A stretch of 36,195 nt of DNA from a virus (lineage: Duplodnaviria; Heunggongvirae; Uroviricota; Caudoviricetes): positions 1 to 36,195 of IMG/VR virus record IMGVR_UViG_3300029686_000222; one strand, written 5' to 3'. This document shows, in pieces, positions 1 to 17,255 of the stretch (positions are counted from its first letter, which is position 1; every line of letters begins with the position of its first letter). Made by a program: the position numbers and the translations under genes. Under the pieces are notes generated by a model. The model was not told where the DNA came from and searched no databases. It worked only from the letters and a program-made list of their open reading frames with translations.

Positions 1-1206
1 ATGTTTGATCCCCAAAAGGTAAATGAAAATAAAGAGGCATTTTTTCTGTATGTGAATGCCAGTGGTGAACTTTCTGCACAAAGTGTTATCAGGGTTGTAG
101 AGAGAGAAGGATTTGTTCAAGGGTATTCTTTGAGTCGTCGTGGTTTTAGGACTTTTCGTAAAGATAGAATCTTGCGAATGTTTGATTCAGAAGCTGCCCT
201 TAATGAGGCTTTTAATGCATGGAATGATGAACCGCCTCTGACTTCCAGTGATTATATTCCTCCCAAGCAATCCACGTCGAAAAACAAATTCTCTATTTGC
301 TTTACTGGGTTTAAACAATCAGATAGGGCGCGGTTAACAGAAATAGCCGTTAATAATAATTTTGATGTGAAAATGGATGTTTCAAAATCGTTATTCATTC
401 TTTGTGTTGGCGATAATAAGGGATGGAGAAAGGTTCAAAAGGCTAACGATTACGGTGCACTTATTCTGAGCGAAGGACAATTCCTGAGTTTTATAGATAC
501 TGGAGAAATACCTTATAAATCTGAAGATATTGGTGATGCTTATCAACAAAATATAGAAAAGGATGTTGAAGCTTGGCAACGTATGGTTGAAGAGTTTTCT
601 TTAACTGTTCGTACGGTGCGGGAACCAAGGCGAAGCACTGCGCTTATAGCAAATTTTTCTGATGGTTTTGCTGTTGGTTGGCGTTTCGCTGTGAAGGAGG
701 TCTTTAAAGAGGCGCTTGATATAAGGCTGACAAAGGTTACTTATGGTGATTACATTTATGAGGTTTGGACGCAAGGTTCCTCTTACCAGTTTCACCAAGG
801 AGATGTATTTTATAGTGACCGTAGTGGTTATGGTTCTTACTCTGAATTTCTACAAAGAGATGATGCAGTTGTCTTACAGGTAAAATATGAATGTTTTTCT
901 GGTTACGATACTGTTTCCTTGTTTGATGGTTCCTTTAGCGGTGAGCTTTCAGTTAATGGGCGCATAGAACCTCGCATTGTTGAGCGTCTTCCTGTTTTAG
1001 TTGAAAGTCAAACCTATGACCCCGGAAAAATTATTGTGGATGTTTTTATCCCCAATGAAAAAAGAAATAAATTAAAATTGTTTGGTGAGTTGTCGATGAA
1101 CCAAGATGATTTTATTTATCTTTTGCAATCCGGATGTTATTGGCAAAAGAAAAAAGGGGAGCGTCCAGAATTGATAAATATTTTCGATGCTATAAAGAAT
1201 ATGTGA
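1..1206 (+). CDS. WYL-domain + BRCT-domain protein with an uncharacterised ~200-aa C-terminal domain (401 aa); possibly N-terminally truncated by the window edge
   Basis: ORF starts at base 1. N-terminus has a WYL-like signature (GFVQGYSLSRRGFRTFRKDRI, resembling the WYL...R-x-FRldRI core). Residues ~95-165 (FSICFTGFKQSDRARLTEIAVNNNFDVKMDVSKSLFILCVGDNKGWRKVQKANDYGALILSEGQF) match the BRCT fold pattern seen in LigA-type BRCT domains. Markedly AT-rich compared with the prophage. Followed by an intrinsic terminator. Confidence 0.6.
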   Translation: MFDPQKVNENKEAFFLYVNASGELSAQSVIRVVEREGFVQGYSLSRRGFRTFRKDRILRMFDSEAALNEAFNAWNDEPPLTSSDYIPPKQSTSKNKFSICFTGFKQSDRARLTEIAVNNNFDVKMDVSKSLFILCVGDNKGWRKVQKANDYGALILSEGQFLSFIDTGEIPYKSEDIGDAYQQNIEKDVEAWQRMVEEFSLTVRTVREPRRSTALIANFSDGFAVGWRFAVKEVFKEALDIRLTKVTYGDYIYEVWTQGSSYQFHQGDVFYSDRSGYGSYSEFLQRDDAVVLQVKYECFSGYDTVSLFDGSFSGELSVNGRIEPRIVERLPVLVESQTYDPGKIIVDVFIPNEKRNKLKLFGELSMNQDDFIYLLQSGCYWQKKKGERPELINIFDAIKNM

Positions 1207-1239
1207 ATTACATCATTGTGAGTGGTCCCAAAAAGAAAA

Positions 1240-1271
1240 CTCGCAGTTTTTACGCTGCGAGTTTCTGCTTT
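1240..1271 (+). terminator. Rho-independent terminator downstream of the WYL-BRCT gene
   Basis: Perfect 7-bp stem CTCGCAG / CTGCGAG with 8-nt loop, followed by TTTCTGCTTT. Confidence 0.6.
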
Positions 1272-1316
1272 GGGATGTGTATAGGGTGCCTTATCAGTCT
1301 TGCCCTGACAACCGAT

Positions 1317-1338
1317 TGACGGGGGATTGCTCCCCCGT
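1317..1338 (-). other. Stem-loop immediately 3' of the hok-like ORF (candidate hok mRNA 3'-terminal hairpin)
   Basis: GACGGGGG-attgct-CCCCCGTC, 8-bp GC-rich perfect stem, 12 nt downstream of the hok-like stop on the minus strand. Confidence 0.3.
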
Positions 1339-1349
1339 CGCGGTTTCCT

Positions 1350-1490
1350 TACTGCTTACACTGTAAGAACGCCGCAAACTCCGCTCCCCAGAAACTCATC
1401 CGTATCTCACACAGCGAACCGTGCAGCATCCAGATGATGAGGATTGCCGTTACGCAGAACGTAATGGCCGTAAGCGATTTTTGCGACATA
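1350..1490 (-). CDS. Hok/Gef-family type I toxin (46 aa): MSQKSLTAITFCVTAILIIWMLHGSLCEIRMSFWGAEFAAFLQCKQ
   Basis: Hand-translated from the minus strand; not in the ORF track because it is shorter than 60 aa. Single N-terminal TM helix, conserved SLCEIR and AAFLxCK motifs shared with HokA/HokB/Gef. AAGGAG Shine-Dalgarno 9 nt upstream of the ATG. Confidence 0.8.
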
Positions 1491-1699
1491 GCGCTTGCTC
1501 CTTTTTCAGGGAGGCGCTAACCTATCACTTGTCTAGGGTAGATGGTTAGGGCCTCGGTTAAACAAAAATGTTTTCCGGGGCCTTTCCACATCCGGCCTTC
1601 AGGTATTCCCTCCAGCCATCAGCCGAAAGGCACCCGCGCGAATTCTAGCCTGGTTTTTTCCCTTGTTTCAATCCGTTGAGGCCTGTCAGCCTTTTGATA

Positions 1700-1777
1700 T
1701 AAAATTCCCGACCGCAGACATTATTCAGTCACGCATTTGATACATGCTTCCGCCGGCGTTCGCGCCGGTTTTTTTTG
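1700..1777 (+). ncRNA. Candidate Sok-like antisense RNA, opposite the hok mRNA leader; 5' end undefined
   Basis: Inferred from hok/sok architecture: a plus-strand intrinsic terminator at 1751-1777 sits upstream (in minus-strand sense) of the hok ORF, where the antisense RNA normally lies. Promoter not confidently identified. Confidence 0.3.
1751..1777 (+). terminator. Rho-independent terminator (plus strand), likely 3' end of the antisense RNA of the hok-like locus
   Basis: CCGGCG-ttcg-CGCCGG stem-loop followed by an 8-T run. Confidence 0.55.
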
Positions 1778-2007
1778 TCCTGTTGCTGCGTAGATCGTCA
1801 TGTGCGATCGATGCGCTGTATTGATCCTTTTTTCAGTTTAATTTTGACTCTTAATTTTACGCAGGCCGCGCCGCGTCTGGCTTCGTTGTTTGACGATTTT
1901 TTGATGCGATCCTTTCGTGATCGTGTCTCATCTCACGTAAAGCATGAAAACTCTTTTAATATCATACAGTTTTATTGCTCCTGCCATTTATGGGATCGTA
2001 AAAACCT

Positions 2008-2200
2008 CTCTGAAAACTGAAAAAAATTTCAAAGCGTGAAATTTCAGATCTTCGCTTTTCCCTCAGTTGCTGCGCGGGCTGGCGGTCATTTTTGCACGGC
2101 AGAAAACTGAAAAAGTGTTTCGACACGAAACCCGCGGGTTGGAGGGGGTAGCGCGGTTTACGTCACCTCACGCTTTACGTCACTCCGTTTACGCGGTGTG
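2008..2200. repeat. Cluster of short direct and inverted repeats in the non-coding gap between the hok-like locus and the prophage tail operon
   Basis: Two copies of GAAAACTGAAAAA, each followed by a small inverted repeat (AAATTTCA..TGAAATTT; GTTTCG..CGAAAC); then three direct copies of TTTACG(T/C) within GCGGTTTACGTCACCTCACGCTTTACGTCACTCCGTTTACGCGG. Confidence 0.3.
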
Positions 2201-2250
2201 TGCATACAGCGCCAGAATGGCACGCAGAACGCATTAATCAGGTGGTGGAT

Positions 2251-2279
2251 AGGAAAACGCACGGCCGGGACCGTGCGTT
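2251..2279 (-). terminator. Candidate terminator of the tail operon (minus strand)
   Basis: ACGCACGG-ccggga-CCGTGCGT hairpin about 40 bp beyond the spike-gene stop, followed on the minus strand by TTTCCT. Confidence 0.4.
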
Positions 2280-2317
2280 GCGTGATGGGGCGTTTATGTG
2301 GCTTTTATGTCTGGTGT

Positions 2318-4015
2318 TCAGGCGATAATGTCGCCGTATTTTTCGCGCAGACTCGTCGCCTGCAGGGCATCTGCGGCAAGTTCGCCGCTGTTCATTGGCG
2401 TGCCTGTGTTGCTATGGGTGTGGTTTGCTGTATGTGTGGCCAGCAATTGAATCAGATCCAGAATATCGATCAGCAACGTCAGCAGGTTAAGCCCGGACTT
2501 TTCCCGCGAGCCGCCGCGACCAATAAATACTGTCGGGGAGGTAAACTCCAGACCGCCGTCCGCCCTGCATGTTCTGCGGCCTCCCACGTTTTCGGTGAGG
2601 TCATGCTCAATGGTGGATATCGCCCCTTTGAGTTGAGTCAGCAAATCCTGCGCTACCATCTGGATATGCTCACCGGCTGCGATCGCATAATTGCCGGTAG
2701 TAAGGTGTTCTGTCTGGCCTGTCATCAGCTTACTGGTGCCAAGAACACTGGTTATGTCGTTTGCCTGGACTGTTGTTGTTCTGGTTGTTGTTGTGCGTTC
2801 TTCCTGATCGCTGTTAATGGTTCGCCTGGCTGAATGCTCCCTGATTTGCTGGTCAGTTTCTCTGTGCCAGCTTCCGTCAGTCGTGACGCGCTGAAACACT
2901 TCTGCGCGCTGTTGCTGCAGTTGTTCGCCGGGCTTTACATCAGGCAGGTTATGGCCCGCGGGTAAGATTTGCCTGATGACAGGTTTATCCGGTCGCCCTT
3001 CAATGTTGGATATTTCCACGATGGTGCCTGCCGGCGGGTAGGCAAAACATCCCGCCTCGCTACCTGCCATCGGGACGGGGAGTGGTACTGCCGGATAAAC
3101 AGGCGTATCGCTTTTATCGTTGCCGTTCTCATCAAGCAGTTGCACATCGACGGCGTAGCGTGGGCGGAAGCTGTCGGCAATATCGCCTAGGGTGACGGAT
3201 TCCGTTGGGGCAATGACGCGCGCCAGCCGGGTATGCAGAGTGCCGCTGGCCAGTTCCGGGAACTGTGTTTCCATCTGTCTGCGTAATGGTGATTTGGAAA
3301 CAGGGCTACCCGTGGCGGTAAGGCGTTCCCATGTCAGGGTCATTTTCTCGTTGTTGAGGGCTACACGGGTAATGCGCCCGGCCGGAAGGTTCACGCCCGG
3401 CCGCACAGTTTCCATAAACATGATGTCGATGCTGTTTCCGCCGCTTTGCCCGAGTGTGTACTGTTGCGGAATATCCGGCATGGTAATACTGGCAAACCGT
3501 GAATCCGGTGCGCTTCCCACAAATACGGAACCGTCCGGCATTGGATGCCAGACGTAATCGCTGATACTGAATGCTCGCCCCAGCTGGCTGAGCAGTTGTG
3601 CTCCGCTGCCGCTGTGGGTGATGTAAGGTGTCGGTGTGCTGACGTAATCCGCATCTGGCGTGATGAAAACGATGCCGCTTTGTTTACCCAGATTATCGAG
3701 TACATCCCGTAACGTTGGATGTTGCATGGAGCAGGGGAAATCAAAATCCAGCACGGCAGCTGCTTCACGGATAAAAAGGCGGCGTGAGCCATTTTCGGCG
3801 GGTTGATCGCGCTCAATGTAGCCGGAGAAATAGCGCCATGCCTCACCATTACGGCCGAGATCAATTTGTATCATTGCGCCGGCAAGGCTTTTTTCCGGTG
3901 ACAGATTATTAACAGAAATGAAGCCGCGACCGGCAGCATTCAGGGTAAGGACAAGGCTGATATCGGCAATTTCCGCCAGCTCGCCATTAATCATGCAACG
4001 TTGGATTAATTTCAT
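2318..4015 (-). CDS. Large central tail spike / hub-spike protein (gpV/VgrG-like), 565 aa
   Basis: Last gene of the tail operon, ATGA-coupled to the upstream gene, AGAGGAAGGG RBS. Internal motif PPAGTIVEISNIEGRPDKPVIRQ resembles the gpV/gp5 OB-fold signature; C-terminal HTANHTHSNTGTPMNSGEL resembles the HxH apex of P2 gpV. The ~320-aa N-terminal domain is of unknown type. Confidence 0.6.
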   Translation of the reverse strand: MKLIQRCMINGELAEIADISLVLTLNAAGRGFISVNNLSPEKSLAGAMIQIDLGRNGEAWRYFSGYIERDQPAENGSRRLFIREAAAVLDFDFPCSMQHPTLRDVLDNLGKQSGIVFITPDADYVSTPTPYITHSGSGAQLLSQLGRAFSISDYVWHPMPDGSVFVGSAPDSRFASITMPDIPQQYTLGQSGGNSIDIMFMETVRPGVNLPAGRITRVALNNEKMTLTWERLTATGSPVSKSPLRRQMETQFPELASGTLHTRLARVIAPTESVTLGDIADSFRPRYAVDVQLLDENGNDKSDTPVYPAVPLPVPMAGSEAGCFAYPPAGTIVEISNIEGRPDKPVIRQILPAGHNLPDVKPGEQLQQQRAEVFQRVTTDGSWHRETDQQIREHSARRTINSDQEERTTTTRTTTVQANDITSVLGTSKLMTGQTEHLTTGNYAIAAGEHIQMVAQDLLTQLKGAISTIEHDLTENVGGRRTCRADGGLEFTSPTVFIGRGGSREKSGLNLLTLLIDILDLIQLLATHTANHTHSNTGTPMNSGELAADALQATSLREKYGDIIA

Positions 4016-4587
4016 GTTTTCCCTTCCTCTTTCACGCTCCCGATGCCAATCCAGTCCAGCCCGGAGCCAATACCATCATTGATGTTTTTCCAGAAAGTCT
4101 CCTGGGTATTCATTCCTTTATCCGGTGCCTGCTCACTGCCGTTCTGTGTCTGCTGCTTTGCGATTGTTTTCTGTGAGCCACTGCGTGCCGATGCTTTTTC
4201 CGGCACGCTTAATTTTTCCCTGAGAGTAAAGGTGACCTGCCAGTGCATCTTGCCCTGTTGTTCCGTTGCATCAATACCGCCCGAAAAAACACCCTGTCGC
4301 ATATTAATCGCCTTAGCAGTAGCGTTGGCGATGCGGTATGTTTTTTTAGCCCCGTTGCTTTCTGTGGCTTCTGCAAGCTGAAATATACGGGTCAGAACAG
4401 CTTCATCATTAAAATCAATGACGCCTGATACACGCAGCTCTTTAGCCTTGCTTCCCTGCTGGGCACTGGTGGTGCTGGTTGACTGTCCGGACATATCTTT
4501 ATCCGGTAGTTGCATGGTGGCGCTGACGATGATGTTGCGTAACAGAATGGCTTCCCCGTCAAGTGCAAGAACGATCATCTGGGTCAT
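4012..4587 (-). CDS. Hypothetical tail-operon protein (191 aa), function unknown
   Basis: ORF overlapping both neighbours in the tail operon; no motif recognised. Start could be the ATG at 4587 or at 4578. Confidence 0.5.
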   Translation of the reverse strand: MTQMIVLALDGEAILLRNIIVSATMQLPDKDMSGQSTSTTSAQQGSKAKELRVSGVIDFNDEAVLTRIFQLAEATESNGAKKTYRIANATAKAINMRQGVFSGGIDATEQQGKMHWQVTFTLREKLSVPEKASARSGSQKTIAKQQTQNGSEQAPDKGMNTQETFWKNINDGIGSGLDWIGIGSVKEEGKT

Positions 4588-5281
4588 GTAGTGATTCTCT
4601 TAGTGATGAAAGATCATTACCGACAAACAGCATCACAGCTGTAAAAACCCATTCCGGATGTGGAATATTTTTTTTTATCAGTGCTGCAACCTGATTTAGC
4701 GTGCCCGTATAAAAAAAACGCCACACCGGACATGTGTTTTTCTGAATTGCGGCCTGCTGGTCGGTGATTTCCTGTAGTGCCTTATCTCTCGCGATTCTGA
4801 ATTGATTCAGAGACGAGGATAATGTTTCCGGAGATACAGCGGTCGGGATCGCAGCCTGCGCAATAGTCGCTGCCCGCGTCATGCTGCGGGTGGTTTGTGT
4901 GGACAGCGTGACTTCTGCAGGAAGTGTGGTTGCCGGTTTTGCAGGGAGCTGCATTTTACTCACGGCCAGCGAAAGCTGGCTGGAGATCATGCGGGACATT
5001 CTTCCCACTTCCGGCAATGGAAGTGCACCTGAAAACTGTCTGGCCAGTGATAAAAACTCGCCAGCAGACGGGGCGCAAAATAACAGCGCCACAACATCTT
5101 TTTCAGTGCTTTCTGTCAGATAAGGTAAAAGCGCGGATACAGCATTATCCGGGCTGAGGTAACGCCCTGATGGTGTAATGTTTCCCGTATTTTCTGACCA
5201 TGGATGGAGACAAACCATTGAACAGGTGATGGCCATGGGGGCCGGGCGCAGAATGGCGTGCTCCCATACAGAATATTTCAT
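4559..5281 (-). CDS. Hypothetical tail-operon protein (~240 aa), directly downstream of the second tail-fiber gene
   Basis: ORF 4559-5302 in the track; the first ATG with an AGGA RBS is at 5281 (the 5302 codon is TTG). No recognised motif. Confidence 0.5.
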   Translation of the reverse strand: MKYSVWEHAILRPAPMAITCSMVCLHPWSENTGNITPSGRYLSPDNAVSALLPYLTESTEKDVVALLFCAPSAGEFLSLARQFSGALPLPEVGRMSRMISSQLSLAVSKMQLPAKPATTLPAEVTLSTQTTRSMTRAATIAQAAIPTAVSPETLSSSLNQFRIARDKALQEITDQQAAIQKNTCPVWRFFYTGTLNQVAALIKKNIPHPEWVFTAVMLFVGNDLSSLRESLHDPDDRSCT

Positions 5282-5305
5282 CTCATTTTCCTGTACGTTC
5301 AAATG

Positions 5306-7834
5306 TTACCCCATTCCGTTCTGACGCAACGTTGTCCCTGCAAGTGTTTTTATAACCACAACACAGGGGAGCAGCCCATTATCTGCGCCGGCAACTTCTT
5401 CCAGTGTTGACATATCCAGTGCATAGTGAGGTTTATCAGGCATCACCACCTGTATTCCGATAGTGATTGTTCCCGCATTTGCAGAGACAGAGCTGACAAA
5501 ATACTGCGCTGAAATGTACTGTCGGTTCTGGTTCTGATAGAGATAACGCGGCTCAATCTGCGCTGAAACAGCGATTCCGATATCGCCAACCGAGGATTGC
5601 CCGATGGGGTTTGATACATCCAGCTTCAGGGGATAAACACGCGAACCATCGGGCAGGCTTTTAAATGAATCCAGACTGGAGTTCAGGGTGCTTACGAGCA
5701 TTTTTGGGATGATCGGGTGAGCGCCATCAACAAACAGAGATTCTGATTGTTTTTTTAATAAATTTGTAGCAGCAGAAGAAACTGCAGGTACAAAGTTTCT
5801 GTACCATGTTTGCGTGGTTGCATTGTACGTAAATGTAACGCTTTTCCCTGCAAATAACGCTTCCGGAGCATCTGAAACCTGTGCATCCTGTGTAAGAAAT
5901 GATGTTCGCGTCACGTCCCTCTTCGCCGTGACTGACAGGTGACAACCATCAACCAGCCCTGGTGCTATCCTGAACTGGAGATATGAAAGTGCAGAGTCAT
6001 TATCAATAAACAATACGGTGTCATTGGTGAGTTTATCCACAACCACCTGGGCGTTATTGACGGGGGTAATGTGTCTGATCTCTCTTTCCGGAAAGACAAT
6101 ATCTTCACCTCCAACAACGGAGCGACCATTAATTCGCATAAAGTCGCGTGTACTCATGCAGGGGACTGCACCCCACGCTGAAACAGACATTGCTGATGCA
6201 ATATCTGAAATTGTTACGGCGGCCGTTTTTCGGATCTGCAGACGACGAAGGGCTGTTGTTGCGGCAGTCTGTGAGGCCGTAACTTTTGCCACGAATGCAA
6301 AAAAGTCGCTCATGGCGAAAGTATCAATGCCTGCGTAATCCGATGTAAATAAATCAGGATAATCTTTCTGGATGGCATCCAGAACGGATAGTCCATATTG
6401 TACCTGTTCAGCAGGTGTATCCAGCACACCAAAACGCCACGGAGCAACAGAGAAACGGTCTTTTTGCACAAAACGAGCATCGCCCGGGGTATCGGGGTAA
6501 TCAGCTTCATTGTAATACGTCTTGAATCTGTTCTGGCCCGGAACAAATAATGCCAGCAACCCTGTTTTAATTGTTTTCATTGCGTTGGAATATTGCGAGG
6601 CGGCATCAGAGTCATTAACCAGTCCGGCCAGAAAGACCAGGGCCCGTAAACCGGCATACACTTCGGCATTATCCTGACAAAAACATTGCGCGTAATGAGT
6701 ATTACCGGGAGCAACGTTTCCCTGAAAGACGTTTACCAGATTTGCACCAGTATTTAGCTGACGCAAAATATTATTTTCCGCTACCAGTCTGATAATTTCC
6801 CATCTGGAATGATTGCCGAGCCCTGAAGGGGCCTGTAACCACGAAGCGTCTGCGATTTCAGCAATACAGGCAAACCAGAGGGATGGGTAACTGTCTGTAG
6901 AATCAGGGGCAACCGGTGAATATAAATCAGCGGCCACATCGGTAAAGAACCATGACCATGATGACGGGATCTCTTTGCTGGTCTTCCCGAGACATTCAAG
7001 AACAGCAGAGCCTGTATAAATAAACTCACCTTGTGAGATGCTACTGATATCAGGTGTGGTTTCTCCGGAAATGCCGGCGATATTTACAAAAAAGAGCGTG
7101 CTGTTAATCATCACGCGCTGTCCGGCTTCATAACGGAAATTCGTCATGAATGGCGCTGTTATACCGAGACGAAAGGCTTTTTCACAAATAACGATTCTGT
7201 CCCTGAGAGAAAAGGCCTTGCCTTCGCTTTCATACATTGCAAGAAACAAAAAATACCAGTTAATACCCCCGGTTGAATTAAGATAACGCCAGAGCCCTGA
7301 ATAACGCCCGTGGGTTATTTGCATGGACAAAAACTGCTTATTAGCTTCGGTGACCGCATAACGGGTTGATACTGCTATGTGATCGCTGATAAAGCCCTGA
7401 ATTGTTTTCATCTCCTGCGAGATGTCTGTTTGCCAGCTTTCAGGAGGAACAGTAATGTGTGCAGCCTGAGCCAGGCCGCTGTAAATGACAGCAAAATTGC
7501 GGATGAGTGTTTCGCCGGCCAGTTTGTGGCGAACCGGGGTTTTAATTACACCGCACAGTGTGTTGCTGGGTTGATGGACCAGGCAAATCCAGTCATAAGT
7601 GAATGTCTCGTTATCAGCAACAACGGCACTACAGACAATGCTGTTTGGATCCAGTTTTCCATAGTGCAGATTATTTACCGTGTGTGTGATTTTTTCTGGA
7701 GGGACAACTTCATCATCTCTGGATGGTTCCCTTTCCATCAGTGCAAAAACAATGGAGTCAGGTCGCGCCGGTAAATTACTGGCGGCGCATTCAGCAACCC
7801 ATTTCTCAAATGCTTTCGTCAACAGCGCGCTCAT
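5306..7834 (-). CDS. Second tail fiber / tailspike protein (842 aa), N-terminal anchor domain paralogous to the upstream fiber
   Basis: N-terminal ~150 aa align with the 567-aa fiber (shared motifs PARPD, LIRNFA/LIRTFA, W-Q spacing); large divergent C-terminal region. TAATG overlap with the assembly gene. Confidence 0.7.
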   Translation of the reverse strand: MSALLTKAFEKWVAECAASNLPARPDSIVFALMEREPSRDDEVVPPEKITHTVNNLHYGKLDPNSIVCSAVVADNETFTYDWICLVHQPSNTLCGVIKTPVRHKLAGETLIRNFAVIYSGLAQAAHITVPPESWQTDISQEMKTIQGFISDHIAVSTRYAVTEANKQFLSMQITHGRYSGLWRYLNSTGGINWYFLFLAMYESEGKAFSLRDRIVICEKAFRLGITAPFMTNFRYEAGQRVMINSTLFFVNIAGISGETTPDISSISQGEFIYTGSAVLECLGKTSKEIPSSWSWFFTDVAADLYSPVAPDSTDSYPSLWFACIAEIADASWLQAPSGLGNHSRWEIIRLVAENNILRQLNTGANLVNVFQGNVAPGNTHYAQCFCQDNAEVYAGLRALVFLAGLVNDSDAASQYSNAMKTIKTGLLALFVPGQNRFKTYYNEADYPDTPGDARFVQKDRFSVAPWRFGVLDTPAEQVQYGLSVLDAIQKDYPDLFTSDYAGIDTFAMSDFFAFVAKVTASQTAATTALRRLQIRKTAAVTISDIASAMSVSAWGAVPCMSTRDFMRINGRSVVGGEDIVFPEREIRHITPVNNAQVVVDKLTNDTVLFIDNDSALSYLQFRIAPGLVDGCHLSVTAKRDVTRTSFLTQDAQVSDAPEALFAGKSVTFTYNATTQTWYRNFVPAVSSAATNLLKKQSESLFVDGAHPIIPKMLVSTLNSSLDSFKSLPDGSRVYPLKLDVSNPIGQSSVGDIGIAVSAQIEPRYLYQNQNRQYISAQYFVSSVSANAGTITIGIQVVMPDKPHYALDMSTLEEVAGADNGLLPCVVVIKTLAGTTLRQNGMG

Positions 7835-8391
7835 TATTTTTTATTCCCGTTAATATCCTGCAGTAATTCCGGCCATGCAATTGTGGCATACGATGATTTA
7901 TCGGTAATCTGGCTGAAATCCATCGCCTGCAGCGATTTCGCGTAAATGCGCCAGGCTTTTAGGTTTTCCCGGTCTCCGTCACTGATTAACCCCAGCAGCA
8001 GGTCTTTTTCCCACTCACTGGACATAATGCTGGCCTGTTTTAGCAGAACATCACGCTCGTCTTCTGCTTTTAATTTGTAGTCGAAGACAAATTCATCATT
8101 GCGGTAAAACCAGTAACCCGGCGCAGTGATGCGGCGGTTAGCGGTAATATCAGGAACTTCAATAACGCTGGCATTGCGAGGCTCAATACCTGTCACATCC
8201 TTACCGACCCACACCACGCGCCCATCCCCGGTGTAAACTATTTTTATTGTGTCACTGGCGAAATTCTTCAGTTCTTCATACCAGTTTTTACCGTCTTCCG
8301 AAAAAAGCCAGGTGACGGCATATTGTTTTGTCATCTGATATTGTTCAGCTGTTTTCGGATCTCCCGGAGTAATGTTTTTTAAATGAAGCAT
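7834..8391 (-). CDS. Tail fiber assembly protein (P2 gpG / Mu U-like), 185 aa
   Basis: Size and position immediately after a gpH-like fiber gene; typical tail-fiber-assembly family features. Confidence 0.65.
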   Translation of the reverse strand: MLHLKNITPGDPKTAEQYQMTKQYAVTWLFSEDGKNWYEELKNFASDTIKIVYTGDGRVVWVGKDVTGIEPRNASVIEVPDITANRRITAPGYWFYRNDEFVFDYKLKAEDERDVLLKQASIMSSEWEKDLLLGLISDGDRENLKAWRIYAKSLQAMDFSQITDKSSYATIAWPELLQDINGNKK

Positions 8392-8393
8392 TG

Positions 8394-10097
8394 TTATACA
8401 CTCGCTACGTTATACCAGGTGCCATTAATCAGTTTCTGAAGAGGGCGGTAATACACGCCGCTGATGTTATCTGCCGAGTTGCTTCCGGTTTCCTGCACGT
8501 TAATACCGGATAATCCGTGGCCTGAAGGTGAGCGAAATGTCCAGGATATCTGGTTACCTCCTGGGTTATAAAACATTTCGGAGCCATAGCGGATATCCTG
8601 CACTCCTGTTCTGCCCAGGTAACCGGCTAATGAACCGCCCCAGATACTTCCATGCACATCGCCATTTGATGCGAGGCGGGCAGAGCCACTTCCTGACTGC
8701 ACTTCACCGGATGCAACACAGTTACCATTTACGCCATTTCCCAGAGATACTTTGCCGGTGGATAAGTCGATCGTAAACGGTCTCAATCCGTTAAACCCCC
8801 CGTATGGGGTGCCCCTGTCGGTCATCATCAGATACAGGTAAGTGCCGTTCTGGTGCCAGAATGATCCGATATTTCCGTATACCATTCTGTAGCTGTTTGG
8901 AGATGCTGTTTGTATCTCTCCTGCGCTTTTTACCATGCCAGTTGTCTGTAGTTGTGGGAGTGTCAGGGGGCCTGTCATTGTGTCGCCACTGCGCTGAACT
9001 GCACCGTCAGCTTTATCGACAGTGGGTTTTAATCCGACATTTTCGATAAACAGTGGTTTGTTGGGGATGTCGCTACCGTTGCGATTTTTAGCAAGACGAT
9101 CATTAGCGTTATTCATTGCGATTTTTACCGCTTTTGACGTGGCGGCGCGGTCTTCTGCGTCGCTGTCGGTGGCGTTGCTGTACTGCGCAAAGCCTTTCTC
9201 ATTCAGTGTTGCGTCCGGGTGTCTGCGGGATTTCTCGTGCTCTGCCAGTGCATTGCTTTGTTCCTCGTCGGGTGTCTCCGGGCGCAGGTCCTGCGGGCCG
9301 TCTGCTGTCATTTTTGCAAGTGGCGCGACAAAGTGTCGGAAGCCGTTACCGTCTGTATAGGACGCATGTTCCTTGCTGGCGCAGAACGTAAAAACGGTAT
9401 TCCATTCGCCGGTAACAAATCCCTGCCAGCTTGCATCAATCCAGAGGGTATCCCCGACCGCAGCCGGCAGGCTGTAAGGTTCGCGCAGACTGACGCGCAG
9501 GCCTCCCACATAACCCACGCCGGCGGCAACAGTGGCGGTACCGTCCTGATAGCTGACCTGAAAACCGTCCCCCAGAAAGGCAGCTTCACCGTAGTGATCA
9601 AATGCCAACAGGCGACGTGATTCATCCATTCCCGCGAGTCGGGCAGTAAAATCAATCTGCCAGACATCAGCACTGACATCGATATGCATTGCCGCAGCCG
9701 CACCGTCAAACTCCATGGCAAAGGTGCGAATAAGGTTATTTCCCTGCACGCCGTTTGCTGTTTTAATTTTTTGCTGGCGCGGTGTGTGTGCAATCATGCA
9801 GAGCACGCCGCTTTCTTCGTTCATGAGGCCAATCCAGTTATATTCGAAGTCACCGATAGTGGTGTCCAGAATAATGGAAAATGCGGCAGCATTCGGGGAC
9901 AGCAGTCCATACTGAGTGACCGGCGCGCGGTACTGAATCATGGATTCATCGGGCAAAGCCTCGTCACGGGGAATTTCGGCAGACTCATCCTGTCCCGGGA
10001 TATACGCAAAAACAAACATGTCCGGGCGTGCGGGTTTATCGCTGATAATCTGATCTGCGCACCAGTTTTCATATTGTTCAGTAATAATTGTGCTCAT
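8394..10097 (-). CDS. Tail fiber protein (P2 gpH-like C-terminal region), 567 aa
   Basis: EHEKSRRHPDATLNEKGFAQYSNATDSDAEDRAATSKAVK matches the conserved P2 H / Mu S block (EHEQSRRHPDA..KGFTQLSSATNSTSE..AATPKAVK); C-terminal KLINGTWYNVASV matches the P2 H terminus (KYINGTWYNVAQV). Confidence 0.85.
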   Translation of the reverse strand: MSTIITEQYENWCADQIISDKPARPDMFVFAYIPGQDESAEIPRDEALPDESMIQYRAPVTQYGLLSPNAAAFSIILDTTIGDFEYNWIGLMNEESGVLCMIAHTPRQQKIKTANGVQGNNLIRTFAMEFDGAAAAMHIDVSADVWQIDFTARLAGMDESRRLLAFDHYGEAAFLGDGFQVSYQDGTATVAAGVGYVGGLRVSLREPYSLPAAVGDTLWIDASWQGFVTGEWNTVFTFCASKEHASYTDGNGFRHFVAPLAKMTADGPQDLRPETPDEEQSNALAEHEKSRRHPDATLNEKGFAQYSNATDSDAEDRAATSKAVKIAMNNANDRLAKNRNGSDIPNKPLFIENVGLKPTVDKADGAVQRSGDTMTGPLTLPQLQTTGMVKSAGEIQTASPNSYRMVYGNIGSFWHQNGTYLYLMMTDRGTPYGGFNGLRPFTIDLSTGKVSLGNGVNGNCVASGEVQSGSGSARLASNGDVHGSIWGGSLAGYLGRTGVQDIRYGSEMFYNPGGNQISWTFRSPSGHGLSGINVQETGSNSADNISGVYYRPLQKLINGTWYNVASV

Positions 10098-10729
10098 GCG
10101 TTACCTGCCTGTAATGTGTAATGCTCCACGGATAATCCGTAATGCCCTGCCTGTAATGATGCGTTTAATCTGATTGTGCCTGGACGTATCGTCGCTTTTG
10201 CCACGTAATACCGGTAATCACCGCTAAATGTGCCGGCTGTCAGGTGAGCGGTGGTTGTATTAATCACCTGAAAGAAATAGCGCCTGCAGGTACGGCCATA
10301 CTGGCGCACGAGCTGCATCATCAGGGCGTTGTTTTCGCTTAACTGGGTGTCATTGATACGCAGTAAAATAACGTCCCAGTCATGCTGCAGCTGTCGTTCC
10401 AGGGTTTTTACCTCTCCCACCCCAAGACGCTTAAAGATGCGTTCGAAGCCTGCGCGTTCGCCCGAGTCCTGAGCGTTGATAAACGCGTGTTTTACCCTTA
10501 AGCGAAATAATGAAACTGGCTCCCCACTGAAGCGGGTGATGTTGCGCTGATAGGCCAGCAGGTTAAGCAGAGGCTCTGCGCAGGTATCAACATCAATTTG
10601 CTGTAGTGGCCATGTCAGCCAGCTGTAGACCTTCTCCCAGTAACGACGTGAAGAATGTGCCAGTGTTAATGGCTCTCCCTTGTTCATCCAGGTTGGGAGA
10701 GGGAATTCGGGCATCTCCGGAATATTCAT
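10094..10729 (-). CDS. Baseplate/tail protein gpI-like (212 aa)
   Basis: Position between gpJ-like and gpH-like genes; ATGA overlaps at both ends. Start taken at the internal ATG (MNIPEMPEF...) that overlaps the J stop. Confidence 0.65.
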   Translation of the reverse strand: MNIPEMPEFPLPTWMNKGEPLTLAHSSRRYWEKVYSWLTWPLQQIDVDTCAEPLLNLLAYQRNITRFSGEPVSLFRLRVKHAFINAQDSGERAGFERIFKRLGVGEVKTLERQLQHDWDVILLRINDTQLSENNALMMQLVRQYGRTCRRYFFQVINTTTAHLTAGTFSGDYRYYVAKATIRPGTIRLNASLQAGHYGLSVEHYTLQAGNA

Positions 10730-11910
10730 GACCCCACCTCCACGATAAGGGATTCCAGGCGAGGCACAGCCAGGTCGCTGAGAATATCCGGAAGGGAAAA
10801 CGTGACCGATTCCACCTGCGGAAATACCTGGTGGATCTCTTCGCCCAGTCGGGACATGCTGAAACGGCTGTACGGCCATGTTTTCTGAACGTCATAATCG
10901 CTGTTTTCGCGAAACGCACAGCGGACCAGATTCTCTACGTTGCGTAATAAAGCCTGTATCTCTTCAGCGTTGAGGTTCAGTGTTGCATACAGCCAGAGTG
11001 TCACGGTCAGGGCATGGCGCGTTTCAGGCATGGAAAAACAGCGCAAATCATCGCCGTGTCCGTGATGACCTTCATCGTTAATAAATGCGTTTACTGCATC
11101 AACGAACGGTCCGGATGCGATGCCGGTATCCAGCAGAATGTAAGCGTTTGCTGTGCCGGGGCCGCGTGGTGCGTCATGCAAAAAATAGATGCGGTCGGCA
11201 CTGATGCCGGCAACACCGGCAATTAATCCCCGGTAAACAGCGTCGGTGTGATAAGCACCGGCAAGATTAAACTGATTGCGAACGCGATCACGCAGTTCGT
11301 CGTCGCTTTCTTCGTTGGCCCCCGGCGTGGTCAGCCAGTTTTCGTCGTTCTCAACGCCGGCGATACCATTAATCGCCACCGGAAGAATGCGGTAATACCC
11401 CGGCGCGAGGTTAAACCCGGCTCCGGCCTGTTCAGCAGAAACATCGATGTTCATGCTGAGTGTTCCTGCCGGAATAATGGTATCCCTGACAACGGTCAGC
11501 GTATAAATCACGCCGTTAATGCGTTCTGTCTGAATCTGCGTACCAGCCGGTACGGTGACCGCGTGATCAATGTCGTCTTTTGTGAAACGAATCACGCCAG
11601 CTGCGTGCGTGGCAGCCTTGCGCTGCAGGTTTACCGCCCATGCGAAAACATCCACAAATACACCGCTGGCACTTACCAGAAACAGGTTTTTCATTACCAC
11701 ATTAACCAGTGCATCTTTCAGCCACATCACGGGCTTTGTGGTAATGGCTGTAATCAACCGCCAGAACGGCGACATGCGGGATGTGTTAGTGATAAGCCCT
11801 TCGTCTTTAACGATGGCCTCAAATTCAGTGCGCGCCTGTTCTTCGGTTACCGGCATGCCGTTATCAGCCAGAATGCGCTCGTAATCTGCGGTTGGTTTGC
11901 CGTTAATCAT
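10726..11910 (-). CDS. Baseplate J-like protein (P2 gpJ / Mu gp47 family)
   Basis: 394-aa ORF with baseplate-J family character; directly upstream of the gpI-like and fiber genes. Confidence 0.75.
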   Translation of the reverse strand: MINGKPTADYERILADNGMPVTEEQARTEFEAIVKDEGLITNTSRMSPFWRLITAITTKPVMWLKDALVNVVMKNLFLVSASGVFVDVFAWAVNLQRKAATHAAGVIRFTKDDIDHAVTVPAGTQIQTERINGVIYTLTVVRDTIIPAGTLSMNIDVSAEQAGAGFNLAPGYYRILPVAINGIAGVENDENWLTTPGANEESDDELRDRVRNQFNLAGAYHTDAVYRGLIAGVAGISADRIYFLHDAPRGPGTANAYILLDTGIASGPFVDAVNAFINDEGHHGHGDDLRCFSMPETRHALTVTLWLYATLNLNAEEIQALLRNVENLVRCAFRENSDYDVQKTWPYSRFSMSRLGEEIHQVFPQVESVTFSLPDILSDLAVPRLESLIVEVGS

Positions 11911-12253
11911 CAAGAGATACCGTAAAAGTCAGGGGATCAAAAAAATCTTCGGTGTGGGCGCTAATCAGCAGGCGGCCGGAAAGCGGGGTTTCCTCTGTCA
12001 CACTGACCGTGCCGGGTGTGATGCGCTTATCATCTTCAATCAGCAGTGTCATCTGCATCATAATGTCGGCGCGAAGCGTCGGGCTTTTTTCAGCCAGCAG
12101 GCGCGTTGCCAGTCCGCTTTCAATGATGGCGTGCTGGCAGTCCTGGGCAATGCTTTCCCTGTTGTTGCACAGCACCGGTTCGGCGGCGCTGTTCAGCGTG
12201 AAATTGCGACCGGTGATAAGCAAATCAATGTAAAGCGGTTTATCAGTATGCAT
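11903..12253 (-). CDS. Small baseplate protein, gpW/gp25-like (116 aa)
   Basis: Size and position (after the tape measure, before J) match gpW/gp25-type wedge proteins. Start taken at the ATG giving MHTDKPLYIDLL...; overlaps the tape-measure stop. Confidence 0.45.
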   Translation of the reverse strand: MHTDKPLYIDLLITGRNFTLNSAAEPVLCNNRESIAQDCQHAIIESGLATRLLAEKSPTLRADIMMQMTLLIEDDKRITPGTVSVTEETPLSGRLLISAHTEDFFDPLTFTVSLDD

Positions 12254-14339
12254 GCAGCTCCATCCATTCATTAAGGTGGGCCGGGGATGCATCCTGCACA
12301 TTGACATTGACCACGCGACGGGAGTTATCAATTGTGGTCTGGCTGTCGCTGTTATTTTGCATTTTTGCCGCAATGCCACCTGGCCCGGCGCTAATAACTT
12401 TTCCACCGGTTAATACAGAACCCTCACTGTTATCTGTAATTTCTGGTACATCAATATTTATACCCGGGAGCATATTCAGCTTGTCAGCAATCCATCTGAA
12501 TGCTGAGCTGAACATACCGATAATTGTGCGCCATAGTCCTGAAAATAATTTATTAATCAGACGAACATAATCCTGAAATATTTCCAGCGGTGAGCGGGTG
12601 GAAAAATAATTAATAACGGCATCCCAGCCGCTTTTAATGCCTTTCCAGGTATTGCCGAACCATACAGCTATATTTTTTATGACACTGGTTACCCACTGAA
12701 AAGCGGCTGTATCCATCAGTGCCGCTTTGATCTCATCCCAGCGGGTAATCAGAAAATAAATGCCCACGCCCAGCGCAGCCAGTGCCAGGATGATTAACGT
12801 TATCGGGCTGAAAAGTAGCTGAGTGGCAACGGCTGCGCCACCGGTAACAGCGGTATAAATTTTCATGGCCACAGCTGCAGCGCCCAGTGCGGCAGAATAA
12901 AGCCACATACCGATGCGTTGCAGTTTCAGCAGTGCAATCTGAATTTTGGCCCTGACATTGTGCGCCCCCATGGCGATACTCATCGCCAGATATAATGCCC
13001 TGACCATGCGGGCAGTAGCACAGAACGCCAGCATAACCACTTTCAGGGCACGATACAGAAAGATGATTAATTTCAGTGGTGCGATTGCGGCCATCCAGAC
13101 CATGCGTAATCCCACCCAGATAAATTTCGCCACCCCCATTACGATATTGACCGTTGCGCCAACCGCCGCAACACCAATAAGTGCCGCGCTTAATAAGCCG
13201 ATTGCACGTGTGATGTTTGGATACAGACGCAACCAGGCAACAAAGGATTTACCGCCTTCGTTGCTTTTCTGGATGAATGGATACAGAACGGGTAACAGTT
13301 GTGTGCCAATTTCAATGCGAATGCCGTTAATAATCGCAGCGGCCTGTTCCCACGGATCGGCCATGGCTTGTGCCATTTCGACAGCCTTATCCATACCTTT
13401 GATATTGCCCAGCGTGGCGATGTTCTTTTCCAGTCCGCCAATGTCTGCATTGAGCAATTTAATCATGGCCACAGCCTCATCGGAGCCAAAAGCGCTTTTC
13501 AGCAAATCAGAGTCAGCCACTTTTGACAGATCACCAAATTTGCCCCTGATAAGTTTCATGATCTCGACAACACTTTTCATCGTGCCGTCTTTATTCACGA
13601 AATTAAGCCCCAGCTTTTTCTGTGCTTTACCAACGGATGCCAGGAAGGATTTATATTTTGTACCAGCCTCGCTGCCACTCATGGTTGCCTGCAGTTGCCC
13701 CAGTACGGCGAACTGCTCGGCCGCATCAATACCGGCTGCTTTTGCGCTGGCACCCAGTGTGGTGAATGCCGCTGACATGTTATCGCCGGTTGTTTTAAAC
13801 ATTTGCACGGCAGTGGCGGTTTGTCCGGCGATCTGCTCCACCCATTTACTTTTTCCCATGGCATCAGCCTGGTCTTTAAAGATGCCGTACATGGTGCCCA
13901 TGTAGGCGGTAATGGTCTGGCTGCTGGATTTGGTTGCTGCTGCCACTGTTGCTGATGCGGTGGTGAAGCGGGACAGCTCATCGTCAGTTAACCCGGCAAT
14001 GGCTGACTGGATGTCGTAAGAAGCACGCACAAAATCCTGCGCAGCTCCGCCGTATTCCATAGTGAAATCAACGGCGGCGCGGCTGAGTTTACGCAGTCCG
14101 GACTCTGCGACGCCCAGTGATTTCACCTCACCGAGCGCCCTGTCCATTTCAATGGCTGGCATCAGTGCGCCCTGAATGGCTGCACCCACTCCCCAGAGCG
14201 CAGCGCCTCCGGTAGCAATGTCCCGAAAAGCTCCCCGACTTGTTGCAGCAAATCCCTGAACCTGTCGCCCGGCTGCGCGTAACGGCCTTGTCAGGCGGTC
14301 TGTCAGTTCAAGAAGTAATTCAAGGCGCTGTTGTGACAT
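12243..14339 (-). CDS. Tail tape measure protein (698 aa)
   Basis: Long Ala/Gly-rich helical protein with hydrophobic central segments, directly downstream of the frameshifted chaperone pair. Confidence 0.85.
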   Translation of the reverse strand: MSQQRLELLLELTDRLTRPLRAAGRQVQGFAATSRGAFRDIATGGAALWGVGAAIQGALMPAIEMDRALGEVKSLGVAESGLRKLSRAAVDFTMEYGGAAQDFVRASYDIQSAIAGLTDDELSRFTTASATVAAATKSSSQTITAYMGTMYGIFKDQADAMGKSKWVEQIAGQTATAVQMFKTTGDNMSAAFTTLGASAKAAGIDAAEQFAVLGQLQATMSGSEAGTKYKSFLASVGKAQKKLGLNFVNKDGTMKSVVEIMKLIRGKFGDLSKVADSDLLKSAFGSDEAVAMIKLLNADIGGLEKNIATLGNIKGMDKAVEMAQAMADPWEQAAAIINGIRIEIGTQLLPVLYPFIQKSNEGGKSFVAWLRLYPNITRAIGLLSAALIGVAAVGATVNIVMGVAKFIWVGLRMVWMAAIAPLKLIIFLYRALKVVMLAFCATARMVRALYLAMSIAMGAHNVRAKIQIALLKLQRIGMWLYSAALGAAAVAMKIYTAVTGGAAVATQLLFSPITLIILALAALGVGIYFLITRWDEIKAALMDTAAFQWVTSVIKNIAVWFGNTWKGIKSGWDAVINYFSTRSPLEIFQDYVRLINKLFSGLWRTIIGMFSSAFRWIADKLNMLPGINIDVPEITDNSEGSVLTGGKVISAGPGGIAAKMQNNSDSQTTIDNSRRVVNVNVQDASPAHLNEWMELHAY

Positions 14340-14526
14340 TACGTTCCCTTAAAGGCGCGGATAATGCCGTTATTGACGGCGATACCCATATTTTCCCAGT
14401 AGTGGTTATCCAGCCAGACGGCAGCAGCCAGTGACTGTGGTGAATCACCTTCACCGGGCAGCCAGTGGCGGCGCAGGATCAGCATCCTGGTAAGGTCATT
14501 GCGATCAATGGCCCCCAGATGGCTTT

Positions 14527-14820: not shown

Positions 14821-14829
14821 GTCCTGTTA

Positions 14830-14878: not shown

Positions 14879-14884
14879 GTAAAA

Positions 14885-15330: not shown

Positions 15331-15335
15331 TGCGG

Positions 15336-15632: not shown

Positions 15633-15635
15633 GGT

Positions 15636-17236: not shown

Positions 17237-17255
17237 AATTTGTCTCCTGATTTTG

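Follow-up and report, generated by a model that had tools for sequence, protein, structure and literature searches.

A rare WYL-BRCT cargo gene at the attL edge of a P2-type prophage is a candidate immunity gene

The first gene of the window (the whole 36,195-nucleotide stretch of viral DNA analysed here), which we call X, encodes a protein that joins an N-terminal WYL domain, a BRCT domain assignable to the LigA/RFC1 class and a C-terminal region, termed domain C, that belongs to a large unnamed family. X is a rare, horizontally acquired cargo gene at the prophage edge, and its domain architecture and genomic context suggest that it is a reasonable new immunity candidate. The reading we favour, with somewhat less than even confidence, is that X belongs, as accessory cargo, to the lysogeny/attachment module of a P2-family prophage and is a candidate superinfection exclusion or abortive immunity protein. 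The features concerned are as follows.

1..1206, + strand: gene X, encoding the WYL-BRCT-domain C protein (open reading frame; 25 full-length homologues; PHROG 36782)
1..228, + strand: WYL domain, an Sm/SH3-like barrel of five strands with a helix after it, aa 1-76 (Pfam, PADLOC, AF2, Foldseek)
229..279, + strand: disordered, poorly conserved linker, aa 77-93 (pLDDT < 50; variable alignment columns)
280..525, + strand: BRCT domain of the predicted LigA/RFC1 (5'-phosphate DNA-binding) class, aa 94-175 (Pfam, Foldseek, profile search)
532..606, + strand: long connecting alpha-helix, aa 178-202 (AF2 model)
607..1203, + strand: domain C, aa ~203-401 (member of a large unnamed family)
1237..1264, both strands: hairpin between X and hok with a U-run after it on each strand, a likely bidirectional terminator (fold energy)
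34768..36195, + strand: C-type repressor (HTH) and integrase genes at the opposite end of the prophage (open reading frames; annotation of identical DNA)

X is an uninterrupted open reading frame of 401 codons for amino acids, starting with ATG. Its 25 full-length homologues range from 34% to 99% identity and have 49 invariant positions in common, distributed across the three domains, a degree of conservation that establishes it as a real gene and rules out a chance open reading frame. PHROG 36782 matches over the full length of the protein (E 1.5e-69). X was found in only one of 5426 E. coli genomes, and its G+C content is 37.6% (GC3 0.287) versus 51.9% for the prophage (2318..36195). The initial annotation, which described X as far more AT-rich than the prophage and as horizontally acquired cargo at the prophage edge, was thus right on both counts, since the composition is AT-rich and foreign and the distribution patchy. 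When X is compared with the copy in Ec-U9-2, where it also occupies an att-proximal slot, the differing codons comprise 4 synonymous and 4 non-synonymous changes, which are too few to inform.

Taken alone, X falls below the Pfam cutoff for WYL (PF13280, 15.6 bits against a cutoff of 21.8, E 0.016), and the PADLOC WYL match is similarly modest (E 0.013). Across the family, PF13280 matches 10 of the 18 N-termini examined (best E 2e-6), with the relatives at loci L124 (25.5 bits) and L040 (45.1 bits) exceeding the cutoff. The AF2 model of X shows a five-stranded barrel (residues 13-18, 24-35, 38-43, 48-53 and 57-61) with a helix after it, for which Foldseek returned PafBC (9fnd_Y, probability 0.98). 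Residues F15, Y17, Q40, G41, R50, T51 and R56 are invariant in the family, the last three lying in the RTFRKDRI motif, so that X has the Sm/SH3-like barrel with an R..R motif near its end. These results bear out the WYL assignment first made from the sequence. In a sister E. coli allele (L073) the gene carries a frameshift at the linker.

The middle domain had likewise been called a BRCT domain, and here the fold is clear. Pfam PF00533 matches aa 96-162 of X just under its cutoff (21.2 bits against 21.3, E 3.4e-4), and precomputed matches to the same model exist for several homologues. The best Foldseek matches were the BRCT domains of RFC1 (2ebu first), LigA and Rad4, with probability 1.00, while a profile of the family domain retrieved from the PDB only LigA (1dgs, 1l7b) and RFC1 (7tib, 2ebu), at E 1e-5. 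The FTGF, K/R and G.KK..KA motifs of the family align with the LigA/RFC1 motifs (HMMER: 1dgs, 1l7b, 7tib), including the TG, R and K positions of the phosphate pocket. In RFC1 we take the 5'-phosphate pocket to be T415/G416/R423/K458; the equivalent T102, G103, R/K109 and K144 are conserved in the X family, G103 and K144 being invariant and T102 invariant or nearly so. A BLASTP comparison of the X domain with one deltaproteobacterial LigA C-terminus gave no alignment. By fold and pocket residues we place this domain in the LigA/RFC1 DNA-binding class, for which DNA binding is predicted. In LigA and RFC1 the BRCT domain is accessory to a large enzyme, whereas X carries neither a ligase nor an ATPase catalytic module. 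The domain ends with a conserved TGEIP motif.

The WYL-BRCT combination is by no means peculiar to X. It had been regarded as uncharacterised, a description that stands, but it is not new, since the architecture was already listed by Makarova et al. 2014 (PMC4012209) and proteins of ~160 aa with this organization form at least 500 clusters, mostly from P2/186-type prophages, and correspond to PHROG 2561. The architecture list in PMC4012209 was the sole relevant text in the literature on WYL, BRCT or SWIM phage or anti-phage proteins, in which we found no characterization of the family. WYL-BRCT alone is the commonest form in phages, cultured Peduoviridae included, which argues that an effector domain is unneeded for the core function; downstream of WYL-BRCT the architecture varies among relatives. 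The Peduoviridae proteins (gp32 of Escherichia phage Cartapus, XAF37129 of Yersinia phage MLG42 and a "DNA ligase" of Mannheimia phage PHL101) are 35-40% identical to aa 11-171 of X and share its slot, in the order cI-int-attP-gene-ogr-D, but they end immediately past TGEIPD, without domain C. None of the cultured phage records covers more than 42% of X, which is therefore a rare extended form.

Domain C was first described as a C-terminal domain of ~200 aa with no recognizable motif, and it proves to belong to a widespread family, without name, structure or annotation, whose hundreds of clusters span diverse bacteria, phages and one archaeal MAG. The family motif is R..LIA.F.DG[FY]A.GW.FA..E.F..ALDI..T ... 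WTQG ... F..LLQ.G, and the model is beta-rich with helices at the termini. A single acidic position is nearly invariant in the alignment, and none of His, Cys, Ser or Lys is invariant at any column, which gives no sign of a catalytic effector; in the X family the domain has a pI of ~5.4 and is not basic, and the net charges and pI values of the domains proved uninformative. Stand-alone domain C proteins (P0028-P0174) are homologous to aa ~203-401 of X, with E values down to 1e-65, and keep its motifs. They differ from X in being separate genes or in other fusion orders, in occurring in many phyla and partly in non-phage settings, and in that their usual partner is SWIM and not WYL-BRCT; the partner is nevertheless again a small nucleic-acid-binding module. 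Fusions of domain C with SWIM make up at least 8 representative clusters, and the domain is also fused to a C-terminal BRCT (P0074, P0131, P0020) and to WYL (L040, E 1e-11). As separate genes, domain C neighbours SWIM genes at seven loci (L030, L032-34, L042, L044, L070) and BRCT genes at three (L036, L057, L071). At locus L031 two neighbouring genes, which adjoin an integron-type integrase, encode the parts of X separately, one of them WYL-BRCT (169 aa) and the other domain C (198 aa).

X is the first gene inside the prophage attL. The window begins at its start codon, and it had been suspected that upstream partner genes were cut off; none was, for 158 bp upstream of X lies the chromosomal core gene ytfP, its left neighbour in every X-bearing E. 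coli contig. Between ytfP and X is the att core, CACCTTCGGGTGGC, which occurs 14 nt past the ytfP stop and again 93 nt past the int stop; at attL it coincides with the ytfP terminator hairpin. In the excised circular genome the order is C - int - attP - X, all on one strand, and the cultured phages Cartapus and MLG42 have the same map (C - int - attP - gene). The ATG of X is preceded, at a distance of 10-23 nt, by a strong hairpin and its U-tract (-20.3 kcal/mol), and no sigma-70 consensus was found upstream of the gene on the + strand. Beyond the stop codon, the hairpin at 1237..1264 (-15.9 kcal/mol, z-score -3.9) likely closes the X transcription unit; the equivalent position in L003 (11241-11260) is terminator-like on both strands. 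X is thus a single-gene unit with hairpins on both sides. Because attL separates it from C and int, a hairpin precedes its ATG and no sigma-70 consensus is present, we can only infer that this copy is expressed in the lysogen.

Relatives of X make the lysogeny-module setting plain. In P2/186-type prophages the full-length homologue is the next gene after the CI/C repressor, with which it shares a strand, and in most cases it overlaps the start of int, giving the order C-X-int (L011, L017, L025); at L020 the order is CI(S24)-X-...-TIR-gpD. In a set of 79 viral loci, none identical to another, the first gene upstream encodes a 186-type CI repressor (identified by Phage_CI_repr and Phage_CI_C) in 34 cases and the second gene upstream does so in 18; the integrase is the first or second gene downstream in 34, and 16 have gpD on the opposite strand, matching the attL-end arrangement of the window. 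The contents of this slot vary. In sister prophages it holds a 93-aa open reading frame (UPEC132) or DUF4875 (STEC316), UPEC132 having the same int, C, cox and att as the window prophage without X. X itself lies inside the element, between the att core and the hok end, as expected of an accessory ("moron") slot.

In enterobacteria, few elements carry anti-phage genes as commonly as P2-type prophages do. To our knowledge the major hotspots of these prophages have already been mined, whereas the small CI/int/attP slot has not. The slot also holds KAP NTPases that match PADLOC PDC-S20 (E 3e-180) a TIR-like effector and a RES protein (the last in Cartapus), and WYL-BRCT genes often precede such variable cargo (KAP NTPase, TIR-like), followed by int. 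X therefore sits where candidates for lysogen-expressed anti-phage genes, namely the PDC-S20 KAP NTPases and the TIR-like proteins, are found. For P2, minor defence hotspots have been described both in the interval from the integrase to att and in that from the integrase to the primase (PMC13586616). PADLOC, to which the initial annotation had looked for a defence association, matched only the generic BRCT and WYL parts of X. Its 411-aa model PDC-S48 matches aa 98-166 of X (E 1.7e-5) only through the C-terminal BRCT part at model positions 337-406; the remainder of that model bears no relation to X, which therefore does not belong to this candidate system. A weak NCBIfam match to GapS2 (17 bits against a cutoff of 330) fell on a neighbouring BRCT protein and not on X, and GapS2 did not appear as a name among the best 120 WYL-BRCT homologues; a link between X and GapS2 was rejected.

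It is scarcely credible that X is a WYL-type transcription regulator (BrxR, CapW or PafBC-like), or a DNA ligase or exonuclease, despite its WYL domain and the "DNA ligase", "NAD-dependent DNA ligase" and "putative exonuclease" labels that its relatives bear in database records. BrxR, CapW and PafBC share the WYL ligand-sensing barrel with X, and regulators of these types are tied to defence loci and DNA-damage sensing (PMC4012209); however, they are dimeric wHTH-WYL-WCX transcription factors, whereas X has BRCT and domain C instead, lacks WCX and begins directly with the WYL barrel at residue ~13. Because Pfam, NCBIfam and PADLOC detect no HTH, X is not of the BrxR/CapW type, and the comparison with those proteins that had been drawn earlier must be dropped. 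The adenylation, OB-fold, Zn-finger and HhH domains of LigA are all missing, as is the DEDDh domain of exonucleases, and the NCBIfam matches reach only the terminal BRCT of such models, with 10-27 bits against cutoffs of 369-1051; in the LigA models this amounts to the last ~75 residues, with 10.6-23 bits. The "DNA ligase" label on phage WYL-BRCT proteins is a misannotation, and the module so routinely mislabelled is a recurrent resident of the CI/int/attP slot. We also think it very unlikely that X is an addiction component acting with hok/sok, or a stabilizing toxin itself, as its position directly beside hok/sok at the prophage edge could suggest. The hok-like module initially noted there is real, being supported by a Hok/Gef annotation and an Rfam sok match at 1476..1635 on the - strand (E 1.4e-8), but hok/sok is present in 1690 of the 5426 E. 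coli genomes versus one for X, hok is mostly absent beside relatives of X, and a likely terminator lies between the two. hok/sok is a module independent of X.

A weightier alternative, which we nevertheless consider unlikely, is that X serves the life cycle of the phage, either as a sensor of DNA damage or DNA structure in the lysis-lysogeny decision (for example in SOS-independent induction where the C repressor is not RecA-cleavable) or as an accessory to cos-end or integration-excision events near attP. WYL domains in PafBC sense DNA damage, and PafBC is a Foldseek match to X; the BRCT domain resembles the nick- and junction-binding class of LigA and RFC1; relatives always adjoin CI, int or attP; and the effector-free WYL-BRCT form is common in cultured Peduoviridae. 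Against this, X is rare and dispensable, as its single E. coli occurrence and the UPEC132 prophage indicate, its relatives co-occur alike with S24-type, 186-type and P2 C-type repressors, family members are also seen outside prophages and in an integron-like setting (L031, L014), and the architecture downstream of WYL-BRCT is variable. If X did tune lysogeny, it would feed into the P2/186 switch in a new way. It is rather improbable that X instead benefits the host as a DNA-repair or damage-tolerance accessory (lysogenic conversion), with domain C and its adaptor taking part in host ligase or clamp-loader-type transactions at nicks and gaps. In addition to the LigA/RFC1-like BRCT and the reach of the family into diverse bacteria and an archaeal MAG, this proposal draws on Deltaproteobacteria in which a stand-alone domain C and SWIM pair lies between hemA and ligA, directly upstream of ligA (L032), or beside IHF and groEL (L034), settings that are not defence islands. 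However, these are only two housekeeping settings, with ligA adjacency seen once, and the full-length family is essentially prophage-restricted, X being AT-rich, foreign and patchily distributed.

Returning to the immunity reading, we propose that X would be the single-chain form of a widespread two-part module composed of a nucleic-acid-recognizing adaptor and domain C, the adaptor being WYL plus the LigA/RFC1-class BRCT in X and a SWIM zinc finger or BRCT alone elsewhere. X would be made in the lysogen or from an unintegrated phage genome. Its WYL barrel may bind single-stranded DNA or a nucleotide-like ligand and its BRCT pocket a 5'-phosphate exposed by a nick, a gap or a recessed end, so that together they would steer the protein to discontinuous DNA such as the cohesive ends, or the replication and recombination intermediates, of an incoming phage. 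Domain C might then block ligation or replication of that DNA, or signal growth arrest, with superinfection exclusion or abortive immunity as the outcome, to the benefit of the resident prophage. Such an immunity protein would add a reader of 5'-phosphate/ssDNA junctions, a sensor type not yet documented in phage defence. A broader and more doubtful idea is that domain C, conceivably a new fold, forms with small 5'-phosphate, ssDNA or zinc-finger adaptors (BRCT, WYL, SWIM) an unrecognized two-part system for broken or gapped DNA that has no classical enzymatic effector and might, for example, cap or sequester phage DNA ends or replication intermediates, X and the P2-type WYL-BRCT proteins being its prophage-borne immunity version. 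In any case domain C is an unnamed family whose partners are consistently DNA-recognizing modules.

Like X, the P2 exclusion genes old, tin and fun/Z are single genes of P2-type prophages, rich in AT and of horizontal origin. Replication complexes of ssDNA and protein are the target of Tin, which makes for a conceptual parallel with X, but old, tin and fun/Z show no kinship to it in sequence or fold. Together with the P2/P4 defence hotspots, these genes serve the lysogen against other phages (Rousset 2022, PMC9122126; PMC13586616). X lies in the minor int/att-proximal slot and not in the gpA-gpQ or tail hotspots.

Gene X, which opens the window, is an uninterrupted ORF of 401 aa with an ATG start, and is followed by a hok-like module.

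1..1206, (+) strand: gene X, coding for WYL, BRCT and C-terminal parts
1349..1489, (-) strand: hok, a 46-aa Hok protein with the SLCEIR motif; Hok/Gef annotation
1476..1635, (-) strand: sok, Rfam match of 46 bits (E 1.4e-8), below the gathering score
2318..4015, (-) strand: 565-aa protein, no Pfam hit on record
4012..4587, (-) strand: HP1_ORF34-family protein, next after the 565-aa protein

The initial annotation of X as a WYL-BRCT fusion with an additional C-terminal part was upheld by Pfam, by the WYL matches of the family, by modelling and by conservation. The BRCT domain (aa 96-162) scored 21.2 bits against a Pfam gathering score of 21.3. In an AlphaFold2 model with 23 family members as input (mean pLDDT 76) these residues formed a beta-alpha-beta-beta-alpha-beta-alpha unit, for which the best Foldseek matches were the BRCT domains of RFC1, LigA and Rad4 (probability 1.00). 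The N-terminal 76 residues were modelled as a five-stranded barrel plus a helix. By itself the window protein gave a WYL score of 15.6 bits, under the Pfam threshold of 21.8, and the PADLOC WYL model matched it with E 0.013; Pfam WYL was matched by 10 of 18 family N-termini (best E 2e-6), and the WYL-containing PafBC was a Foldseek match to X (probability 0.98). The last ~200 residues (domain C), described initially as lacking a recognised motif, indeed had no match in Pfam, NCBIfam, PADLOC or PDB. Invariant residues (49 across 25 full-length homologues of 99% down to 34% identity) are distributed over all three parts. The GC content of X is 37.6% (GC3 28.7%) vs 51.9% for 2318..36195, confirming that the gene is more AT-rich than the prophage.

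Among 5426 complete E. coli genomes, one carries X and two carry a sister allele that is 59% identical at the aa level. In this sister allele (L073 1..1195, also L047-L049; H61 and H62; cluster P0012 with its 325 members) a frameshift in the disordered WYL-BRCT linker leaves a 100-aa WYL ORF and a 328-aa BRCT-domain C ORF; the allele is either a pseudogene or a natural split. The hok-like character of the neighbouring module was borne out by its Hok/Gef annotation and the sub-gathering sok match. DNA of the hok/sok region (1213..2300) is present in ~1690 of the 5426 genomes, at the ends of several prophage types, and the module is independent of X.

All E. coli contigs with X show the order tamA-tamB-ytfP, 158 bp, X, hok(-), prophage. 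The 14-bp CACCTTCGGGTGGC, which is the stem-loop of the ytfP terminator (L003 9855..9870; L029 ~4590..4603), occurs 14 nt past the ytfP stop and again 93 nt past the integrase stop, beside chpS, and is the att core. It separates ytfP from X, so that no gene of the element lies between attL and X; the concern that upstream partners had been lost at the window edge was thus unfounded, ytfP and the att core lying directly upstream. The window, which spans the ATG of X to the stop of the integrase (35164..36195), covers essentially the entire prophage. After integration the attL hairpin precedes ACGAAAAC, not the native GTTGTTTTAT, and the ytfP terminator is therefore without its U-tract, a loss that could let tamAB-ytfP transcription continue into the prophage end. 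Immediately before the window, a hairpin with a 12-bp stem followed by UUUAUUU (L003 9941..9973; -20.3 kcal/mol, z -3.75) stops 10 nt short of the X ribosome-binding site; in UPEC132 another hairpin occupies this boundary of the conserved att arm. No sigma-70 consensus was found upstream of X, and its promoter was not located there.

The order on the excised circle is C repressor-int-attP-X-hok, and the cultured 186-like phages Cartapus and MLG42 have the same map with a shorter homologue (cI-int-(attP)-[RES]-WYL-BRCT-ogr-D). Slot content beside att is variable: in UPEC132, whose int, C, cox and att are the same, a 93-aa ORF stands where X would be, in STEC316 the slot holds a DUF4875 gene, and Cartapus has an extra RES protein. 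X and hok, together with the int/C/cox end, are common to two prophages with unlike structural modules, the window type and the canonical P2 type of Ec-U9-2. The window prophage is mosaic across 2318..27000, its ends (X/hok and cox/C/int) being 97-99% identical to those of the Ec-U9-2 prophage at the same att site. Of 50,697 cultured phage records, none was closely related to its structural region (≤4% covered); the only part to match P88-like Xuanwuvirus phages was a ParM/partition region towards the right-hand end of the query. The 565-aa and HP1_ORF34-family genes lie directly past hok, before the tail-fibre genes.

Full-length homologues of X from other Enterobacterales and metagenomes were located in P2/186-type prophages. 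There the gene comes immediately after the immunity repressor, in the same orientation, and usually overlaps the int start, which gives the order C-X-int; one locus is ordered CI(S24)-X-...-TIR-gpD. Our IMG/VR scan for relatives gave three locus classes: ~20 contigs with full-length X, ~45 with a WYL-BRCT-only protein of 153-200 aa (PHROG 2561, labelled 'DNA ligase') and ~10 with a BRCT-plus-other protein. Cultured phages have the short form only. Of 79 non-identical loci, 34 have a 186-type CI repressor (Phage_CI_repr + Phage_CI_C) as the first gene upstream and 18 have it as the second; 34 have the integrase as the first or second gene downstream; and 16 have gpD on the opposite strand, as at the attL end in the window. 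At least 500 clusters came up in a WYL-BRCT profile search, and almost all bear the name 'hypothetical', 'BRCT domain-containing' or, in error, 'NAD-dependent DNA ligase'. X is a rare extended variant of this common prophage module. Its kind is known: the lysogeny and att slots of P2-type phages carry AT-rich accessory genes, and WYL-containing sensors have been described. The initial annotation named no characterised WYL-BRCT architecture; WYL-BRCT is among the WYL architectures listed by Makarova et al. 2014 (PMC4012209) and is therefore already known, though uncharacterised. Neither domain C nor the specific combination in X was found in the literature searched.

Variable cargo lies between WYL-BRCT and int, namely KAP NTPases, a TIR-like protein, an NA37 protein and a 294-aa protein with a C-terminal BRCT. 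The KAP NTPases of this CI-to-int slot match PADLOC PDC-S20 (E 3e-180 and 9e-83), with weaker PifA/QatA similarity. KAP-family NTPases and the TIR-like protein directly follow the WYL-BRCT gene at three loci:

L113, 6502..7842
L108, 7644..9164
L107, 6498..7349

Two more recurrent genes flank X in many prophages (L045 4752..5363 and 6720..7604; 13 and 7 similar viral loci). The upstream one codes for a ~205-aa tail-anchored protein like the Flk N-terminus (NCBIfam Flk, E 9e-15), and the downstream one for a 294-aa protein with repeated D-G-x-I-x-x-x-E motifs and a C-terminal BRCT (PDC-S48-like), a type that also adjoins stand-alone domain C in L036 and L057. A homologue of 42% identity (P0019; L014 10001..11206) lies beside a pgsA/tRNA integration site with no prophage genes around and a small opposite-strand ORF at the hok-equivalent place; it looks like the remnant of a lost prophage.

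Domain C is a member of a large family that has no name. Searching 1.84 billion cluster representatives with a domain C profile (aa 186-401) identified 780 proteins at E≤1e-3, of which 396 also passed E≤1e-10, mostly stand-alone proteins of 150-230 aa, with the common motif R..LIA.F.DG[FY]A.GW.FA.PE.F..ALDI..T...WTQG...F..FLQTG; none of the members tested had a Pfam or NCBIfam family. Domain C is fused to an N-terminal SWIM zinc finger in at least 8 representative clusters, to a C-terminal BRCT in P0074, P0131 and P0020, and to a WYL domain in L040 (E 1e-11). Separate genes adjoin it for SWIM proteins (L030, L032, L033, L034, L042, L044, L070) and for BRCT proteins (L036, L057, L071). L031 (3993..6570) encodes the parts of X as two neighbouring genes, one for WYL-BRCT (169 aa) and one for domain C (198 aa), which diverge from an integron-type integrase. 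From these recurrent partnerships, fused or adjacent, it follows that X is the fused form of a recurring two-part module. The L031 integrase, from a gammaproteobacterial MAG, has a Phage_int_SAM_4 N-terminus and is integron-integrase-like, and the split X is possibly an integron cassette. Two SWIM + C pairs occur in non-mobile contexts, one between hemA and ligA and one beside IHF and groEL.

PDB matches of the family BRCT profile were limited to LigA (1dgs, 1l7b; E 1e-5) and RFC1 (7tib, 2ebu, 2k6g), and the FTGF, K/R and G.(R/K)K..KA motifs of the X family align onto the equivalent motifs of both. We take the aligned positions to be RFC1 T415/G416, R423 and K458, the residues by which the 5'-phosphate at a recessed DNA end is bound; in X, T102, G103 and K144 vary little or not at all. 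WYL domains of PafBC and related proteins bind ssDNA. Because the RFC1/LigA-type pocket residues are kept and WYL domains bind ssDNA, we infer that the WYL-BRCT unit may read discontinuous DNA, namely a 5'-phosphorylated ssDNA/dsDNA junction of the sort present at nicks, gaps and cohesive ends.

The architecture of X, its position, its module logic and the slot it has in common with defence candidates are observed, and our preferred reading, held tentatively, is that X is an exclusion or immunity protein. X would be produced in the lysogen and would target the discontinuous DNA of an incoming phage, and domain C might then keep that DNA from being processed further or give a signal for growth arrest. 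Several observations weigh against this: domain C has no evident catalytic residues and only one near-invariant acidic residue, some of its relatives have housekeeping neighbourhoods, in phages the module commonly consists of WYL-BRCT alone with no effector domain, and this copy has the -20.3 kcal/mol U-tract hairpin before its ribosome-binding site and no upstream sigma-70 consensus. At present, therefore, X is a context-based candidate and not a demonstrated system, albeit one worth a phage-challenge experiment.

X could instead serve the phage's own lysogeny, induction or DNA handling, as the place of the gene beside repressor, integrase or attP and the effector-less short form would allow; we regard this as rather unlikely. 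A repair accessory of benefit to the host would suit the LigA/RFC1-like BRCT and the non-mobile SWIM + C pairs; with full-length homologues located in prophages, we consider it less likely still. Adjacency to hok is what suggests an addition to that addiction module; the module occurs independently of X, and this reading is very improbable. The WYL domain and database names such as 'DNA ligase' on relatives could suggest a regulator, a ligase or an exonuclease, a reading to which we give almost no weight and which we rejected because X lacks both an HTH and a catalytic domain; of the LigA and DEDDh models, only the BRCT end matches.
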